Shown here piece after piece: positions 2,120 to 9,774 of a stretch of 16,375 nt of DNA (positions within the stretch are counted from its first letter, which is position 1; the number at the start of each line of letters is the position of its first letter). The stretch lies in the NCBI GenBank assembly GCA_029856145.1, contig JAHQWK010000027.1, positions 1-16,375 of the forward strand. The letters run 5' to 3'. The translations under genes and the position numbers were made by a program. The notes below the pieces were generated by a model. The model had not been told where the DNA came from and searched no databases. It worked only from the letters and a program-made list of their open reading frames with translations. This DNA comes from Promethearchaeia archaeon (GTDB lineage Archaea; Asgardarchaeota; Lokiarchaeia; Sigyniarchaeales; SOKP01).

Positions 2120-3346
2120 ATGAAGTTTTTAAAAACTATTAGTGTAGAAGAATTCAGAAATATTCTTAATTCAATCCAAAAGATAGTAACGGATGAAGAA
2201 ATAGTCTCTCTAGGAGATTGTTTCAATAGAATTATTTCTAGGGATATTAATGCTAATATAAATGTCCCTCATTTTAGAAAATCACGAATGGATGGATATG
2301 CTGCAATTGCTGAGGATACTTTTGGGGCAGAAGAAGATAACTTAATCGAACTTGAGTTAATTGATACAATCCAAGCAGGAGATATATCTCAAACGAAGTT
2401 AAACAGGGGTCAATGTTTTTATGTAGCAACTGGAGCCCCGATCCCTGAAAATTCTAATGGAGTAGTTATGGTCGAATTTACAGATAGACAAAGCAATAAG
2501 ATTGTAATTTCTAAAGCTGTAACTCCTGGCACCTACATTATCGAAATAGGACACGATGTAAAAGAAGGAGATCTTATCATTAAAAAAGATACGTTAAGTG
2601 ATTTAGCTACTATAGGTATTCTAGCTTCATGTGGTATTAAAGAAGTACATGTATATAAGAAACCAGTTGTAAGTCTTATAAGCACAGGGAATGAATTAGT
2701 AAGCCAAGACATAAAAGAATTAAAGATTGGTAAGATTTACGATATAAATTCAGTTGTATTGAAAAAAGCTATTGAAAATACAGGTGTTCTAGTAAATTTC
2801 TTAGGTGTTGTAAAAGATCATTATGAGGATTTGAAGTACATTATTAATAAGGCATTAGATAATAGTGATATTGTTATTCTATCCGGGGGTACATCTAAAG
2901 GTGAAGGAGATTTAGGTCCAAGAGTTTTAGAAGATTTTACTGATATAGAAATCTATGTTCATGGAGTAAAAATTAAACCAGGCAAACCGATTATATTTGT
3001 AAAAATGAAGAAGAAAATATTATTTATTTTACCAGGTTATCCTACTTCTGCTTTAAGTTGTTTTTATGTTTTTATTGATAATTTTCTAAGAAAAATGTCT
3101 GGTTTCCCTTTAAGAGAGAAATTTTCAAAAGAAATGGAAGTTGGAGAGAGAATATATAGTACAGTCGGTCGACATGAGTTTAAAGCGATAAAAATTCAAG
3201 AAAATGAAGGTGAAAAGAAAATTTTTTCTATTAAAACGGGTTCAGAAGCAATAAGCACGATGTTCTATGCTGATGGATATATAGAAATTGATGAATTAGA
3301 ATCAATTATTGAAAGAGGAGATAAAAGAAGAGTTTATTTCTTCTAA
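2120..3346 (+). CDS. moeA: Molybdopterin molybdo/tungstotransferase MoeA, paralog 1
   Basis: SRMDGYA, ATGAPIP, STGNEL, SGGTSKGEGD, IKPGKP, LPGYP, ADG motifs; 408 aa. Confidence 0.93.
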   Translation: MKFLKTISVEEFRNILNSIQKIVTDEEIVSLGDCFNRIISRDINANINVPHFRKSRMDGYAAIAEDTFGAEEDNLIELELIDTIQAGDISQTKLNRGQCFYVATGAPIPENSNGVVMVEFTDRQSNKIVISKAVTPGTYIIEIGHDVKEGDLIIKKDTLSDLATIGILASCGIKEVHVYKKPVVSLISTGNELVSQDIKELKIGKIYDINSVVLKKAIENTGVLVNFLGVVKDHYEDLKYIINKALDNSDIVILSGGTSKGEGDLGPRVLEDFTDIEIYVHGVKIKPGKPIIFVKMKKKILFILPGYPTSALSCFYVFIDNFLRKMSGFPLREKFSKEMEVGERIYSTVGRHEFKAIKIQENEGEKKIFSIKTGSEAISTMFYADGYIEIDELESIIERGDKRRVYFF

Positions 3347-3368
3347 AAAATATCGAATTAGAAATAAA

Positions 3369-3938
3369 ATGGTTAAAATGATAAAAAAAACAAAAGTTCC
3401 CCAAGAACACAAAAAGAAGGCTCCTGAAAAAATAAATTTGGCTTTAATCATTGTAAGTACAAGTCGATTTAATGAGATGGAATCTGGAAATAAAAGCTCA
3501 GATAAAACAATCCCAAAGGTTAAACGATTATTGAAAGATGATCAAACAATTTCATTAACTTTTACTAGTATTATACCGGATTCCGAAGATCACATAAAGA
3601 GAGTCACATTAAAACTATTGAAAGATCCTACGATTGATTCAATCATATTTAGTGGAGGAACAGGTCTCTCAGAAAAAGATATCACATTTGAAACCTTGGA
3701 ACCTCGTTTAGAAAAAAAATTTAATGGTTTTGGCGAACTCTTTAGATCACTATCTTACAATGAAATAGGTACTTCAGCTATGTTATCAAGAGCAACTGCG
3801 GGTATTTTGAGAGGGAAAAAAAAGAATGTAGCCATTTTTCTACTCCCAGGCTCTCCTAATGCTGTAAGGCTGGCTTTTCAATATATTTTAATCCCCGAAT
3901 TAGGACATATTTTATACCTAATTAATAAAGAAGAGTAA
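3369..3938 (+). CDS. moaB: Molybdopterin adenylyltransferase, MoaB/MogA family
   Basis: IIVSTSR, IIPD, SGGTG...DIT.E, GFGELFR, SRATAG, LPGSPNAV. The start is more likely ATG 3369 or 3378 than the TTG at 3309, which overlaps moeA. Confidence 0.9.
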   Translation: MVKMIKKTKVPQEHKKKAPEKINLALIIVSTSRFNEMESGNKSSDKTIPKVKRLLKDDQTISLTFTSIIPDSEDHIKRVTLKLLKDPTIDSIIFSGGTGLSEKDITFETLEPRLEKKFNGFGELFRSLSYNEIGTSAMLSRATAGILRGKKKNVAIFLLPGSPNAVRLAFQYILIPELGHILYLINKEE

Positions 3939-3940
3939 TA

Positions 3941-5191
3941 ATGACGGAAAAACTTCGGACAATAGGATTTTCGAAATTAACACCTTTAAAGGATGCTTTA
4001 GAAAAACTTAATTCAAAAATCCAAATAAATCCAACTGAGGAAATTGAAATTAAAGATGCTTTAAATCGTATTTTAGCAGATAATATAATTAGCAAAATAA
4101 GTATCCCACCTTTTGATCGATCAGCTATGGATGGCTATGCTATTAAAGCAGAAGATTCATTTGGTGCATCTCCTAAAAATCCAAAGGAGATCAAACTTGT
4201 TGGGATAATTGAAATAGGAGAATTTTCAAAATTTAAAATTGATAGGGGGGAAGGAATCAGGATTTCCACTGGAGCACCAATACCAGAAGGTTCAGATGCA
4301 GTAATTAAAATTGAAGATACTGAAATTGAAAAAGATTTGATTAGTCTTTATACTTCCCTGGTCCCAGGAAAAAATATTTCAAAGAAAGGGGAAGATATCA
4401 AGAAAGGAACTCATGTTTTAAGCAAAGGTACAGAATTAAAAGCTGAACATATTGCACTTTTAACTTCATTAGGTTTTAATAAAATAAAAGTAAGGATTAG
4501 ACCAAAAATTAGTATTTTCTCGTCTGGAGATGAGTTACTTGAACCGGGTGTTCCTCTAGAACCAGGAAAAATTTACAATTCCAACACACCAATGATATCA
4601 GCATTAATAGAATTGTATGGTGGCAATGCTATACGAGGTGAAACAATTCAAGATGATAAAGAAGCTATTAAGAAGAAATTATTGGAAGCAGTAGAAGATT
4701 CTCAGATTATCATATTTACTGGGGGTACTTCAATCGGCACAAAAGATTATCTACCAGAGATTATTGAAGAATCGGGTATGATTCTAACACATGGGATTGC
4801 TCAGAGACCGGGAGCTCCAGTTTTGATAGGTTTTTTGAGTGAAACTTTAATATTTTGCCTGCCTGGAACTCCTGTTGCGGCTTATGTTTCTTTTTTAAGA
4901 ATTGCTGGACCTGCAATTAGAAAAATGTTAGGATGCTTAGTTTTTGATCCAAGAATAGAAATTATTGCTACAATTAGTAAAGACGTTCCAGTTTCAGCTC
5001 TAGGATTTCTTCATCATTTAAGGGTAAACCTTGAGAAATCTGAAGAGGAATTTATTGCAAACCCTGTTAAATTAAGAGGGTCTGGTGTGATAAGCTCACT
5101 AACTTTCTCAGATGGAATAGTTGAGATTTCACCAGATCAGGAAGGGTTAAAAAAGGGAGATAAAGTCAAAGTAAAACTCTTTCCTAAATGA
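3941..5191 (+). CDS. moeA: Molybdopterin molybdo/tungstotransferase MoeA, paralog 2
   Basis: PPFDRSAMDGYA, STGAPIPEG, SGDEL, NSN, GGTS.G.KD, LPGTP, GSGVISSL; starts 2 nt after the moaB stop. Confidence 0.93.
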   Translation: MTEKLRTIGFSKLTPLKDALEKLNSKIQINPTEEIEIKDALNRILADNIISKISIPPFDRSAMDGYAIKAEDSFGASPKNPKEIKLVGIIEIGEFSKFKIDRGEGIRISTGAPIPEGSDAVIKIEDTEIEKDLISLYTSLVPGKNISKKGEDIKKGTHVLSKGTELKAEHIALLTSLGFNKIKVRIRPKISIFSSGDELLEPGVPLEPGKIYNSNTPMISALIELYGGNAIRGETIQDDKEAIKKKLLEAVEDSQIIIFTGGTSIGTKDYLPEIIEESGMILTHGIAQRPGAPVLIGFLSETLIFCLPGTPVAAYVSFLRIAGPAIRKMLGCLVFDPRIEIIATISKDVPVSALGFLHHLRVNLEKSEEEFIANPVKLRGSGVISSLTFSDGIVEISPDQEGLKKGDKVKVKLFPK

Positions 5192-5430: not shown

Positions 5431-6312
5431 ATGGTTGATACAACCAGAGTAGTTAAAGAAATACAAGTTAAATATAAAATAATTGGTAGAACCGAAGAGT
5501 TAAGACAAATTGTTTTAGCTCATGCAGTAGGTAAAAATATATTACTAGAAGGAAACGTGGGTGTCGGTAAAACCAGATTAGCTAAAGCTGTTGCTAAATA
5601 CCATGGTTCTAATGATTCTAATTTCTTTAGGGTAGACTGTAGCGAAGAATTGCTTCCTCATAATCTTGTTGGATATTTTGAACCCCCTCTTGTAATTGTG
5701 AAAGGTTATATTGAAGATTCATATAAATATGGGCCATTAGCCTTAGCCATGATGAATGGTGGATGTTTATTTATAAACGAAATAAATAGAATGCCAGAAA
5801 GTACACAAAATTCATTGTTAACATCTTTAGATGAAGGAATCCTTGAAATATCTAAATTAAAAACAATTAAAGCTCATAAAGACTTCTTTGTTATGGCAAC
5901 GCAAAACCCTGCCGCACATGTAGGAGTCACAGTATTAGGGGAAGCTTTAAAAGATAGATTTATATGGATTAACTTGAATTATCAAAATCCTGAAGAGGAA
6001 ACTCTAATTATCAAACAAGAAGCTAATTTGAATAGTGGTAATGCCAACAAAATAGCAATTATTTCTCAAAATATCATTCAAGTAACCAGAGAAAGTACAT
6101 CAATACGTAGAGGAAGTTCGATTAGAGGAGCAATAGATTTAGCCACTTTAATCAATCAATATGATAACAACAATAGTACTAAAAATTGGGTTGAAGCTGC
6201 TGTAATGGCATTATATAATAAAATTGAGCTCGAAGATGGCTTGACTCAATCCAAAAATGAAATTATTACTAATATTGTTTTAACTGTATTAAATAAATCG
6301 GATTTTCAATAA
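5431..6312 (+). CDS. MoxR-family AAA+ ATPase
   Basis: Walker A GNVGVGKT, Walker B-like LFINEINR, ATQNP sensor-1, ALKDRF arginine finger, SIRGAID sensor-2 region; VWA gene directly downstream. Confidence 0.9.
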   Translation: MVDTTRVVKEIQVKYKIIGRTEELRQIVLAHAVGKNILLEGNVGVGKTRLAKAVAKYHGSNDSNFFRVDCSEELLPHNLVGYFEPPLVIVKGYIEDSYKYGPLALAMMNGGCLFINEINRMPESTQNSLLTSLDEGILEISKLKTIKAHKDFFVMATQNPAAHVGVTVLGEALKDRFIWINLNYQNPEEETLIIKQEANLNSGNANKIAIISQNIIQVTRESTSIRRGSSIRGAIDLATLINQYDNNNSTKNWVEAAVMALYNKIELEDGLTQSKNEIITNIVLTVLNKSDFQ

Positions 6313-6356
6313 TCGATGATTTCTCTGAGGAAGAGTCTGAAGAGATTGAGAAAAGG

Positions 6357-7421
6357 TTGCATGTAAGGCTTACTGAAAGTCGACCAGATAAGAAAATATT
6401 AGAATATGAAATAATTCGAAAAAAGAAGAAAAAACCTGATTATTATAGACATTTAGCTAATACATTAGATTACAAACAAATTAAAGATTTGACATATCTA
6501 GCAATTCAATATAAAAATCTTGAAGCTCTTATGGGACTACTCAAATCAAACGTGTATGCCGCTAGTGATGCTTTAGATACGGAAGACGGAATAAAATTTT
6601 TCTCAGAAAAAGCAGCAGAATCAGGAGATTTCATGCCAGAAATCTACTTCTTTATAAGACGTCCTATTTCTAAAAAATATAAATCAATCTTTAGACGATT
6701 AGCACGCCAAAGTATTTTAAAACTGTCTTTAAAAATAACAAGTAGAGGAATTAGAGGCCAATTCAAAAAAACAGTCCCTTATTATCAAATGGGTATGCCA
6801 GAATTTAGTATAGATGAAACAATTCAGCATAATCCATTAAAAATTTATGAAAAGAACTTGAATTATAAAGATATCTATGGAATTGAAAGAAAACGACAAA
6901 AAAGAAAAGTAGTCTTAATTTTAGATACGAGTGGAAGTATGTATGGGCGTTTACTATTAAACGCTGCTCTTACAACATCGGTTTTAGCTTACAATATGGA
7001 AAAAGAAGATTATGCTATTGTATTATTTAATTCCACAGTAATGGTTATGAAAAAAATTAATCAGAAAAAACCAATTGTTTCAATTATTGATGATATTTTG
7101 GATTCTGAAGCTGCTGGATTTACAAATATATCTATTGGCTTAGAAAAGGGATTAAAAGAACTAAATAAAATAAAAGAAAATAGAAAAAGCCGTTTTGGTA
7201 TTTTAATTACCGATGGAAATTATAACCGTGGAGATAATCCTCTTATTTTAGCAAAAGCCTTTCCTAGGCTTCATGTCATCGGAATGCCTGCAGAAAATGA
7301 CGCTGATCAAGGTATTGAGACATGTCGAGAAATTGCTAAAGCTGGAAGAGGAAAATTTTATGCTGTAAATGATTATAAAGAAATTCCACGAGCTTTAATT
7401 GAATTACTATCTCAAACTTAA
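6357..7421 (+). CDS. VWA-domain (MIDAS) partner of the MoxR ATPase; start uncertain, possibly translated as a -1 frameshift fusion
   Basis: Intact MIDAS: LILDTSGSM (DxSxS), GFTN (T), LITDG (D). The frame is open from 6297 and the first in-frame ATG is at 6531. Confidence 0.88.
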   Translation: MHVRLTESRPDKKILEYEIIRKKKKKPDYYRHLANTLDYKQIKDLTYLAIQYKNLEALMGLLKSNVYAASDALDTEDGIKFFSEKAAESGDFMPEIYFFIRRPISKKYKSIFRRLARQSILKLSLKITSRGIRGQFKKTVPYYQMGMPEFSIDETIQHNPLKIYEKNLNYKDIYGIERKRQKRKVVLILDTSGSMYGRLLLNAALTTSVLAYNMEKEDYAIVLFNSTVMVMKKINQKKPIVSIIDDILDSEAAGFTNISIGLEKGLKELNKIKENRKSRFGILITDGNYNRGDNPLILAKAFPRLHVIGMPAENDADQGIETCREIAKAGRGKFYAVNDYKEIPRALIELLSQT

Positions 7422-7621: not shown

Positions 7622-8203
7622 TTGGCTTTCGAAGAAGAAAAACCTGCCTATGTCTTTAAAATTTGTTTGATTGGTAGTGGAGCTGTAGGAAAAACATGTA
7701 TAGCTCGAAGATTATGTTTTGATACTTTTGATGCAAACACTCAATTGACAATCGGAATAGACTTTTACACCTACGACATCCCAATCATAGTAAAAGGTGA
7801 GGAAACATTTGTAAGACATACAATTTGGGACTTTGGGGGGCAAGAACAATTTAAACGATTATTTAATTATTACATTGATGGTGCAAATGGTATATTTTTA
7901 GTTTTTGAGTTAGTAAAATTAGAAAGTTTAACACGTTTAGATTGGTGGTATGACAGGTTGGTAGAACACAATCTTCATGAACGTCCTAAAATACTAATTG
8001 GTACTAAACTTGATTTAGTTCAAAGTGAAAGTAAAAAACATAAGGTTGATGAATTAATAATTGAGCAATTTCTTACAAAACATAACGAACAAGATTATGT
8101 AAAGACTTCTTCAAAGGAGAATATAAATGTTTTCCATAGTTTTAAAGAAATGACTAAAAAGATTCTAGAATCTCATAATTTAGATTATGATGGATTTATT
8201 TAA
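7622..8203 (+). CDS. Rab-like small GTPase (eukaryotic signature protein)
   Basis: G1 GSGAVGKT, G2 TIGIDF, G3 WDFGGQ, G4 TKLD, G5 TSSK. TTG start preceded by GTGAG. No C-terminal cysteine. Confidence 0.92.
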   Translation: MAFEEEKPAYVFKICLIGSGAVGKTCIARRLCFDTFDANTQLTIGIDFYTYDIPIIVKGEETFVRHTIWDFGGQEQFKRLFNYYIDGANGIFLVFELVKLESLTRLDWWYDRLVEHNLHERPKILIGTKLDLVQSESKKHKVDELIIEQFLTKHNEQDYVKTSSKENINVFHSFKEMTKKILESHNLDYDGFI

Positions 8204-8748
8204 TCATTAATCAAGTATTCCTCAGGAATTTTTAACCCATACCCTGCCTTTTTAAATTTTTGCCCATTTTCGACGTAAAGATTAGAGCTAAATTCATTTA
8301 AATTCTTATTAGGATATCCTTTTTTCTTAGTCGCAGGTATCCCAGCATATAGACTAAAATCTTCTGTTTTGGCTTTTAAAACTGAACCCCCCGCTAAAAC
8401 AGAACCCGTTCCGAGTTTAGCTCCATCTAAGACAGTTGCTTGAATCCCAACCAAAGAATAATCTCCAATAATACAAGGTCCATGACACATACATGAATGT
8501 CCTAACCTTACATTATTACCGATTTTACAAACTTCGTTTGGCCTGGAATGTAGTACCGCATTGTCTTGAATACTTGTATTTTGGCCTACAATAATCTTTC
8601 CCCAATCTCCACGAAGTTTCGCCCCAAACCATATATTTGTATAAGCCCCTATCTCTACATCTCCAATTATTACAACATCTAGAGCAACAAAAGAAGTAGA
8701 ATGAATTTTAGGAATGGTCCCATTGAATGGACTTTTAATTATCATCAT
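8200..8748 (-). CDS. Gamma-carbonic anhydrase family (YrdA/PaaY-like) left-handed beta-helix protein
   Basis: Hexapeptide repeats (IIGDVEIG), IWFGAKLRGD, IQDNAVLH, GHSCMCHG (three candidate metal-binding His), AGIPA. AGGGGG motif just upstream of the ATG. Confidence 0.9.
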   Translation of the reverse strand: MMIIKSPFNGTIPKIHSTSFVALDVVIIGDVEIGAYTNIWFGAKLRGDWGKIIVGQNTSIQDNAVLHSRPNEVCKIGNNVRLGHSCMCHGPCIIGDYSLVGIQATVLDGAKLGTGSVLAGGSVLKAKTEDFSLYAGIPATKKKGYPNKNLNEFSSNLYVENGQKFKKAGYGLKIPEEYLIND

Positions 8749-9162
8749 AGTCCCCCTAAAGATTGAATAACTAAAACATATTTGATGGTAGTAATTTTTT
8801 TTTATTATATATATATCAATATTATATTAGTTTTATAATTACACTACACAAATAATATTCCAGTTATCAATATATTCATCGGCTCTAAGAATTAACGGAG
8901 ATATTCATTTACTACTGAAATACTACAAAAACTTTCTATCGCGGCTTACAAATGAAAGGAAGATTATGTATAGATTTGACTTAAATTCTTTTTTGTCAAA
9001 TGAAATATATGATTAAACTTTTGTGTCTATGATTATAACACGAAATAACTGCGGAAAGACTTATACTTATATTCTTAATTTACTTCATAGATTCATAGCT
9101 ACTTCCTTTTTTAGGGATAACTTTTTTACAATAAAATTTTTCACATAATAGGTGTATTTCAA

Positions 9163-9774
9163 CTGGCTAAAATATCTAATTTCTTATCTGAATTAAAAAT
9201 TGCCCACCGATTAATACGTATGACTGTTGTGGGAGATGGGGCTGTAGGAAAAACTACATTAGTTCAAGCTTTACTCAAAAAAACAAAAGAAAGTCACCAT
9301 AATAACTCAAATGGTATATTTTTAGAAGAAAAAAAAATTACCCGTACTCCTTTTATGGAAATCGAATCTTGGAGTTATAAAGATTTAGTTTTTCAATGTT
9401 ATGATTTAGCTGGACAAAGAATCCCAGGTGTACATCCATTAGATCTTTTACAACATCAGGTACTTAAATGTATTGATATTTATATTTTTGTCTTTTCATT
9501 AGATAGGTATGAATCATTTGAGAACCTTAATAATTGGCTCCGGTTAATGAATCTAGAATACAATATAAAAAATAACAATGCTGGTTTTATTTTAGTGGGT
9601 AATAAAGTTGATTTAGAAAGAAATGTTTCAAGAGAGTTAGTTCAAACCTTAGTGGGTGAGGATAGGTTTTTCCGCACTTATGTAGAAACCAGTTCTATCT
9701 ATGGAATAGGTATAGAAGAAATTTTAGAAAAAATTGTTAATATGGGTCTAAAACTCCTAAATTTGAGCGATTAG
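9163..9774 (+). CDS. Atypical Ras-superfamily small GTPase (ORF-track start 9220; proposed CTG start 9163)
   Basis: G1 GDGAVGKT, G2 TRTP, G3 YDLAGQ, G4 NKVD, G5 ETSS. The frame is open from 9121; AGGTG at 9150-9154 lies 8 nt before an in-frame CTG. Confidence 0.85.
   Translation: MAKISNFLSELKIAHRLIRMTVVGDGAVGKTTLVQALLKKTKESHHNNSNGIFLEEKKITRTPFMEIESWSYKDLVFQCYDLAGQRIPGVHPLDLLQHQVLKCIDIYIFVFSLDRYESFENLNNWLRLMNLEYNIKNNNAGFILVGNKVDLERNVSRELVQTLVGEDRFFRTYVETSSIYGIGIEEILEKIVNMGLKLLNLSD

Follow-up and report, generated by a model that had tools for sequence, protein, structure and literature searches.

The stretch analyzed here (the window) comprises 16,375 nucleotides of contig JAHQWK010000027.1, from assembly GCA_029856145.1 of a Promethearchaeia archaeon, and this report concerns two overlapping reading frames on its forward strand, one encoding a MoxR-class AAA+ ATPase and the other a protein with a VWA domain. 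The ATPase open reading frame (ORF; 5431 to 6312) yields a zero-frame product of 293 amino acids that matches Pfam AAA_3 (9e-19) and AAA_5 (2e-18). It carries a Walker A motif (P-loop) at 5551 to 5574, assigned from its position and from Pfam, and thus has the AAA_3/AAA_5 domain with Walker A that marks the ATPases of MoxR/VWA-type systems. The gene ends in TCG GAT TTT CAA TAA, with the stop codon at 6310 to 6312. The second ORF lies in the -1 frame relative to the first and is open from 6297 to 7421, directly after a TAA in that frame (6294 to 6296) that sets the 5' bound of the interval in which a shift could occur. Inside the overlap stands the in-phase candidate slippery heptamer G_GAU_UUU (6300 to 6306), conserved among relatives, in which Asp GAU would occupy the P site and Phe UUU the A site.

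Read onward from 6306, the -1 frame runs for 371 codons and a stop (to 7421) and specifies an acidic linker with D or E at 8 of 17 residues, some 190 amino acids without a known family, and the VWA domain (Pfam VWA, 3.9e-10; residues 205 to 364 of the second protein). The MIDAS motif of this domain, DxSxS at 6924 to 6938, was recognized by its position and invariance and is complete, residues D210, S212, S214, T276 and D306 of the VWA protein (P0002) all being invariant. The interval between the ATPase stop and the annotated VWA start (6313 to 6356) contains 18 G+C in 44 nucleotides, and the flanking spacers have G+C fractions of 0.21 to 0.26. In the window genome, the sole canonical in-frame start before 6531 is a TTG at 6357 to 6359, which lacks a well-spaced Shine-Dalgarno (SD) sequence; the first in-frame ATG of the VWA frame (6531 to 6533) lies 58 codons further on, within conserved coding sequence. 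A preliminary description of this DNA had listed the ORF ends, the stop, the opening of the -1 frame, the in-phase heptamer, the base and residue counts, the TTG and the ATG, and every one of these statements was re-derived here.

A shift at the heptamer would join 292 residues of the ATPase to the 371 that follow, giving a fusion of 663 amino acids with the predicted junction SDF followed by SIIDDF and the junction peptide SDFSIIDDFSEEESEEIEK. On the comparative evidence set out below, which comprises five independent lines, we consider it probable that the ORFs at 5431 to 6312 and 6297 to 7421 are a single recoded gene with a -1 frameshift.

Frame relation and candidate slippery site across Asgard archaea

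Loci were sampled within the genus, in further genera of the family, in three more families of the order and, phylum-wide, from one or two genomes per family. The close relatives of the locus are Promethearchaeota, that is, metagenome-assembled genomes of the Asgard/Lokiarchaeia type, and of 400 genomes of the phylum, 256 contained a VWA orthologue. The 132 distinct Promethearchaeota junctions compared represent more than 20 GTDB families; relative to the AAA+ frame, the VWA frame stood at -1 in 127 and at +1 in 4, and in 1 the two were fused in frame. Because the same arrangement recurs in 127 of 132 orthologous junctions, the layout goes beyond what chance would give. All but one of the 127 -1 loci (126) carry within the overlap an in-phase N_NNY_YYN heptamer, separated from the ATPase stop by 0 to 2 codons. 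The preliminary description had proposed to look for just such conservation of overlap and heptamer among orthologues, and the phylum supplied it.

The heptamer was G_GAU_UUU in 80 loci, A_GAU_UUU in 15, A_AAU_UUU in 11 and U_UUU_UUA/C/U in 10, with C_CAU_UUU, G_GGU_UUU, C_CCU_UUU, C_CUU_UUU, U_CAU_UUU, A_AAU_UUC and A_AAC_CCU seen once or twice each; other families thus include heptamers of the fully canonical X_XXY_YYZ form (A_AAU_UUU, G_GGU_UUU, C_CCU_UUU and U_UUU_UUC). Tandem slippage needs the base before the P-site codon to match the first base of that codon, and the match found in 110 of the 126 sites, compared with about 27% between neighbouring codons elsewhere in these genes, therefore fits slippage. 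In GC-rich relatives, the U run at the site runs counter to codon bias: at one locus of 61% GC (L034), the remainder of both genes uses TTT 0 times versus TTC 20 and GAT 6 times versus GAC 23, and the site still reads GAT TTT TTC. The most common heptamer, G_GAU_UUU, is a slippery site in plant umbraviruses (PMC13098196), as the preliminary description had stated for plant RNA viruses, and is used by a mycovirus as well.

The point of entry into the VWA frame is bounded in genome G186 (locus L086), where the P site covers a UGA in the -1 frame (T_GAT_TTT), so that the frame could be entered only on U_UUU. Genome G188 likewise has UGA where the P-site tRNA would sit after a slip (T_GAT_TTT). 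At several other loci a -1 frame stop abuts the heptamer directly, and the overlap is 10 to 13 nucleotides. As a separate observation, two loci from other genera of the family (L072 and L076) carry T_TTA_AAC as an additional in-phase heptamer, five codons ahead of the stop; it sits upstream of G_GAT_TTT in an overlap of 58 nucleotides, at a place where the window instead has A_TTA_AAT and a -1 frame stop.

Within the family, the site is conserved at the level of nucleotides. The stretch from 6301 to 6325 is nearly invariant at every codon position by family entropy; in 84 distinct family sequences, entropy was zero at 18 of the 23 positions from 6301 to 6323 (range, 0.00 to 0.53), including all heptamer positions from 6301 to 6306. 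Wobble positions of the VWA frame in 6301 to 6323 had values of 0.00 to 0.22, against 1.2 to 1.9 bits at third positions of the upstream ATPase. Further downstream, GAG ATT GAG at 6342 to 6350 is also nearly fixed in the family. Synonymous variation is thus suppressed at the site, as in a -1 frameshift cassette, and the pattern in 6301 to 6323 is one of nucleotide-level constraint beyond coding. The same stretch left a trace in public read data: Logan unitigs of several sediment metagenomes begin or end at 6298 to 6331, where summed depth rises about tenfold (164 versus 17 in X1), which seems to fit an invariant stretch common to several co-occurring relatives.

The frame change could in principle lie in the RNA or in the data: transcription might slip on the T run, the assembly might be wrong, or the locus might be a pseudogene. 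We regard these possibilities together as extremely improbable. Frameshifted chlD genes do have long A runs on which transcriptional realignment is possible (PMC3711429), and runs of T6 to T8 occur in a few relatives of the window; the run in the window is only T4, too short for such slippage by established knowledge. As to an indel error, the explanation that the preliminary description had singled out for checking, none was present over 6100 to 6600 in contigs from four runs of three independent studies; this check was made on assembled contigs, and the runs described as metatranscriptomic are flagged as probable DNA. A pseudogene or error would also sit badly with a layout kept in 127 junctions under purifying selection.

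Translation of the linker and fused homologues

If the VWA frame is entered from the ATPase gene, the sequence downstream of the ATPase stop should be translated, and its pattern of variation is that of a translated sequence. Over 6313 to 6530, mean entropy at positions 1, 2 and 3 of the VWA-frame codons was 0.36, 0.16 and 0.91, and over 6324 to 6530 the ratio of synonymous to non-synonymous differences from the window was 1017:426 in the VWA frame versus 186:1228 and 86:1282 in the other two. By these measures, 6313 to 6530 is evolving as coding sequence in the VWA frame. Similarity to the proteins of other families extends upstream of codon 6357, and gene callers cut the VWA protein short at arbitrary internal starts.

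No start codon is conserved for this coding sequence. Among 46 distinct gap-free congener sequences with the layout of the window, codon 6357 is CTG in 38, TTG in 7 and CCG in 1, and 17 of the 46 have no in-frame ATG, GTG or TTG before 6531. Of the 127 -1 loci as a whole, 79 have more than 60 nucleotides between the ATPase stop and the first such codon. The comparison therefore bears out the doubt cast by the preliminary description on an independent VWA start, and the downstream frame has the properties of the second half of a -1 cassette, being open across the site and translated without a start of its own. Taken together, the coding signature and the lack of a conserved start imply that the VWA frame is entered between 6297 and about 6320, where the ATPase is the only upstream ORF.

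These data also bear on the annotated gene model, in which the VWA protein would be made from TTG 6357 (354 amino acids) and the stretch upstream of it would be conserved at the RNA level only. The TTG is present in the window and in 7 of the 46 congeners. The other 39 have CTG or CCG at this codon, and no well-spaced SD precedes the TTG of the window, whereas its internal genes carry SD sequences of the GGAGGT/GGTGAGG type. Moreover, 6324 to 6356 varies chiefly at third positions of the VWA frame (0.17/0.22/0.73), and the similarity to proteins of other families reaches into it. We think this model very unlikely.

A recoded gene with a 663-residue product might be expected to have counterparts in which the two parts are encoded in one frame, and the in-frame fused homologues that the preliminary description had proposed to look for do exist. 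An exhaustive protein search returned many relatives of 560 to 711 amino acids whose C-terminal part matches the VWA protein, and all 10 of the long homologues scanned (614 to 711 amino acids) are AAA_5-linker-VWA proteins in one chain. One homologue, P0111 (636 amino acids), aligns over its residues 13 to 292 with the window ATPase and over 384 to 633 with the VWA protein, collinear with both. Inside the phylum, locus L067 encodes an in-frame fusion of 714 amino acids that runs through the homologous FFR motif. Because of these in-frame fusions, the predicted 663-residue product has natural single-chain counterparts. A word-indexed search for longer homologues had found none, which reflects its limited sensitivity, since the exhaustive search found many. 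An 829-residue paralogue in the window genome was considered as a fusion and rejected, as it has a VWA domain without an AAA domain. One genome (G307; loci L041 and L173) contains both a -1 frame pair and, separately, the in-frame fused 636-residue paralogue P0111.

In all four lineages with a +1 relation (L043, L065, L066 and L068), the ATPase gene has TTT TTT CGN close to its end. Two of them, L043 and L065, have an in-frame ATG just past the stop and lack the kink-turn motif described below, and they look like ordinary separate genes. Any of the four might use a +1 shift in which UUU slips ahead of a rare Arg codon.

Candidate RNA structure downstream of the heptamer

In most families outside that of the window, the ATPase stop is followed by a stem-loop with the order outer helix, GA, inner stem-loop, RAU, GA, outer helix. 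This layout is, at the level of sequence, the signature of a kink-turn, in which a loop-closed C helix would be followed by a 3-nucleotide bulge and tandem G.A pairs, with the NC helix formed by the flanks. The helices vary in sequence between families with pairing kept, and both covary. A strict kink-turn descriptor matched 12 of 39 junctions, compared with 36 of 2,361 background windows (1.5%), and 22 of the 39 loci, from 13 families, fitted the layout when the search was anchored on the core. The outer helix, which had not been used in this selection, was paired in 86, 73 and 73% of cases at positions 4, 5 and 6, versus 14 to 64% when the partner strand was slid. Windows following the heptamer were more structured than the rest of the locus, and in 12 of 20 families their median percentile was below 0.1. 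The motif was absent from both in-frame fused genes examined. Its GAU GA doubles as an Asp-Asp/Glu codon pair of the linker, and GAU is retained even in GC-rich genomes.

In the family of the window, this signal is rearranged. A candidate kink-turn-like hairpin (6313 to 6351), proposed from its invariant core and from covariation, begins 6 nucleotides past the heptamer and has GAU GA at 6315 to 6319 on its 5' side and a second GA at 6348 to 6349. Read as a kink-turn, it would consist of a C helix (6313-6314 with 6350-6351), a GAU bulge (6315 to 6317), tandem G.A pairs (6318-6319 with 6348-6349), U.U pairs (6320-6321 with 6346-6347) and a helix (6322-6331 with 6336-6345) that contains a GA/GA internal loop and is closed by the loop 6332 to 6335. 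The bases of the proposed core are exactly those invariant in the 85 family sequences of alignment A1. In the helix 6322-6331/6336-6345, 78% of cells are paired, versus 27 to 59% when one strand is slid; five of its pairs show double changes, and its covariation score was reached by 0 of 500 shuffles. An Rfam scan of 6150 to 6550 returned only sub-threshold matches to C/D-box snoRNAs (E of at least 0.46) and no known RNA family.

The preliminary description had seen only a weak downstream pairing, of TTTCTC (6320 to 6325) with GAGAAA (6348 to 6353). That pairing is possible, and RNAalifold picks that helix; the kink-turn-like stem-loop found in most families was largely missed. The helices preferred by RNAalifold on alignment A1, 6301-6304/6311-6314 and 6321-6325/6348-6352, are invariant and without covariation, and we set them aside as the main model. 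Their preference by the program nevertheless counts against the hairpin proposed for the window, as do three further points. The C helix in the window is only 2 base pairs long; without it, the helix proper begins 15 nucleotides past the heptamer; and the minimum free energy of 6307 to 6356 is no better than that of dinucleotide shuffles (z = 0.11). On balance, from the conserved bases and covariation, we hold the kink-turn reading of the window hairpin to be about as likely right as wrong, and we rate it higher in the other families. Two proteins of the L7Ae family are encoded in the window genome.

A probable recoded gene, its alternatives and its precedents

Several observations outside the RNA structure weigh against the interpretation of the locus as one recoded gene. 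The window heptamer departs from the canonical X_XXY_YYZ form, so that re-pairing would be perfect in the A site and only partial in the P site, and a TTG does exist at 6357 in the window genome. In six lineages a TTG or ATG overlaps a TGA stop, and in three families (f13 to f15) the conserved RGRM motif includes an ATG preceded by GAGGT; in these lineages and families, the VWA protein may be initiated independently, either alongside frameshifting or in its place. The relatives compared are, furthermore, not independent samples. Finally, the kink-turn-like motif occurs once without a U run. Locus L171 (599 to 4113; GCA_054681365.1, GC-rich) contains two tandem AAA-VWA pairs, both in the -1 relation, and in the second pair a TTG overlaps the TGA and there is no U run, yet GA, a 4-bp stem-loop and GAUGA are kept, so that the motif may serve another role.

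The last of these observations is of a piece with an alternative in which the two proteins are made separately, the VWA protein starting at a near-cognate codon near the ATPase stop (AUA 6309 or AUC 6312), perhaps by termination-reinitiation, with the RNA motif acting as a regulator. Both codons are invariant in the family, some other lineages have the overlapping TTG or ATG, and L7Ae-bound kink-turns are known translational regulators. Across families, however, no near-cognate codon near the ATPase stop is conserved, and a separate start would leave unexplained the phase of the heptamer, the base match at the P site and the U-rich codons that defy codon bias in GC-rich genomes. It would also have to accommodate G186, in which the frame opens only at the UUU codon, and the frequency of single-polypeptide fusions among homologues. 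We therefore judge separate initiation to be unlikely, and recoding of a single gene remains the interpretation that we prefer.

From these comparisons we infer, in the following form, the occurrence and efficiency of the slip, the part that the RNA structure and L7Ae would play in it, and its purpose in setting stoichiometry. Most ribosomes would read GAU UUU CAA and stop at UAA, releasing the 293-residue MoxR-class AAA+ ATPase. A fraction would slip back by one base while the P site holds GAU and the A site UUU (6300 to 6306), tRNA-Phe re-pairing with UUU at 6303 to 6305 and tRNA-Asp with GGA by way of the first position and one G.U pair. The shifted ribosomes would then decode UCA at 6306 and continue through the acidic linker into the VWA/MIDAS domain, producing the 663-residue AAA-linker-VWA fusion. 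The likely stimulator is the structured RNA that begins 6 nucleotides downstream, a kink-turn in most other families and a rearranged kink-turn-like hairpin here, and the kink-turn-binding protein L7Ae may hold this structure. The fusion would put one VWA adaptor into a ring of ATPase subunits; it may be a minor product that sets the stoichiometry of the ring, as the preliminary description had suggested. The most complete version of the proposal, a phylum-wide -1 frameshift that is stimulated by an L7Ae-held kink-turn and doses one tethered MIDAS adaptor into a midasin-like AAA_5 ring, we put forward tentatively, as somewhat less likely than not.

The pair resembles the CbbQ/CbbO, NorQ/NorD, RavA/ViaA and CoxD/CoxE systems, in which an AAA_5/AAA_3 ATPase is encoded beside a protein with a C-terminal VWA domain and an intact MIDAS, and the VWA protein has a weak match to VWA_CoxE. 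The architecture expected of MoxR/VWA systems is a ring with few adaptor copies. CbbO, NorD, ViaA and CoxE, however, are separate polypeptides with their own starts, whereas the partner in the window lacks a conserved start and would form one chain with a single ATPase subunit. The closest solved structures of the ATPase are the AAA modules of midasin, MoxR (2r44), NorQ and CbbQ, and the midasin modules (6e-32 over two stretches) rank above bacterial MoxR, NorQ and CbbQ. Searched against the PDB, the VWA protein matched only generic VWA domains, and its N-terminal 190 amino acids matched no known relative. Midasin (Rea1/Mdn1) shares with the predicted fusion its AAA_5 modules and the order of AAA, acidic linker and MIDAS domain; it differs in having six fused AAA modules in about 4,900 amino acids, and the VWA part of the window protein has no sequence match to it. 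We do not claim orthology. Given the Asgard host, the midasin-like order of the predicted fusion may bear on the origin of midasin.

The closest precedent for the gene is frameshifted chlD, among the 'magnesium chelatase' genes, in which a -1 shift on a run of A7 to A11 yields ChlI-like and ChlD-like subunits from one gene and for which fused homologues are found elsewhere; its archaeal frameshifted members include those of Methanococcus and Methanocaldococcus (PMC3711429; PMC9227772). As in chlD, an AAA+ ORF is followed by a linker-VWA ORF in the -1 frame, AAA-only and AAA-linker-VWA products are predicted, and in-frame fusions exist elsewhere. The gene in the window differs from chlD in its AAA+ family (AAA_5/AAA_3, MoxR class), in its U-rich heptamer in place of an A7 to A11 run, in its kink-turn-like downstream signal and in its Asgard host. 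It is not chlD itself: it reaches 19.2 bits with the BchD-ChlD model TIGR02031, whose cut-off is 499.55, and Pfam Mg_chelatase matches only residues 16 to 55. No match to CobN/ChlH was found among the eight window ORFs scanned against Pfam.

Like the -1 programmed ribosomal frameshifting sites of dnaX, insertion sequence (IS) elements, umbraviruses and fucA, the window site has an in-phase heptamer and, on the reading proposed here, a short spacer followed by an RNA structure. The canonical signal consists of a heptamer, a spacer of 5 to 9 nucleotides and a stem-loop or pseudoknot; the stimulator proposed for the window is a kink-turn, and the zero-frame stop lies inside the spacer or at the base of the structure. 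Among archaeal cases, a 2021 review lists only S. solfataricus fucA as shown and chlD as suggested (PMC8211752). In our full-text searches, no paper dealt with frameshifting in cellular genes of Asgard archaea or in MoxR-VWA pairs, and none linked kink-turns or L7Ae to frameshift stimulation.

The neighbouring genes comprise two MoeA genes and a MoCF_biosynth (MogA/MoaB-like) gene upstream (2120 to 5191), and two Ras-family small GTPase genes and a TPR protein gene downstream (7622 to 9774). The MoeA and Ras-like neighbours are conserved only in close relatives and not outside the family of the window, and so give no clue to function.

Frameshifts have rarely been documented in archaeal cellular genes, and conservation in more than 20 Asgard families would, if the interpretation is true, make this a strong new case, in the closest archaeal relatives of eukaryotes. 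Like chlD, the locus probably derives two products from a single gene, but it belongs to a different AAA+ family, has a different slippery site and probably relies on a stimulator of a new type. If so, it would represent a second, independent use of the chlD design, in which one gene supplies both a subunit and a subunit-adaptor, and would point to a general way of fixing subunit ratios. Should the kink-turn be the stimulator, it would define a new, protein-dependent class of frameshift signal, with a possible link between L7Ae levels and recoding.

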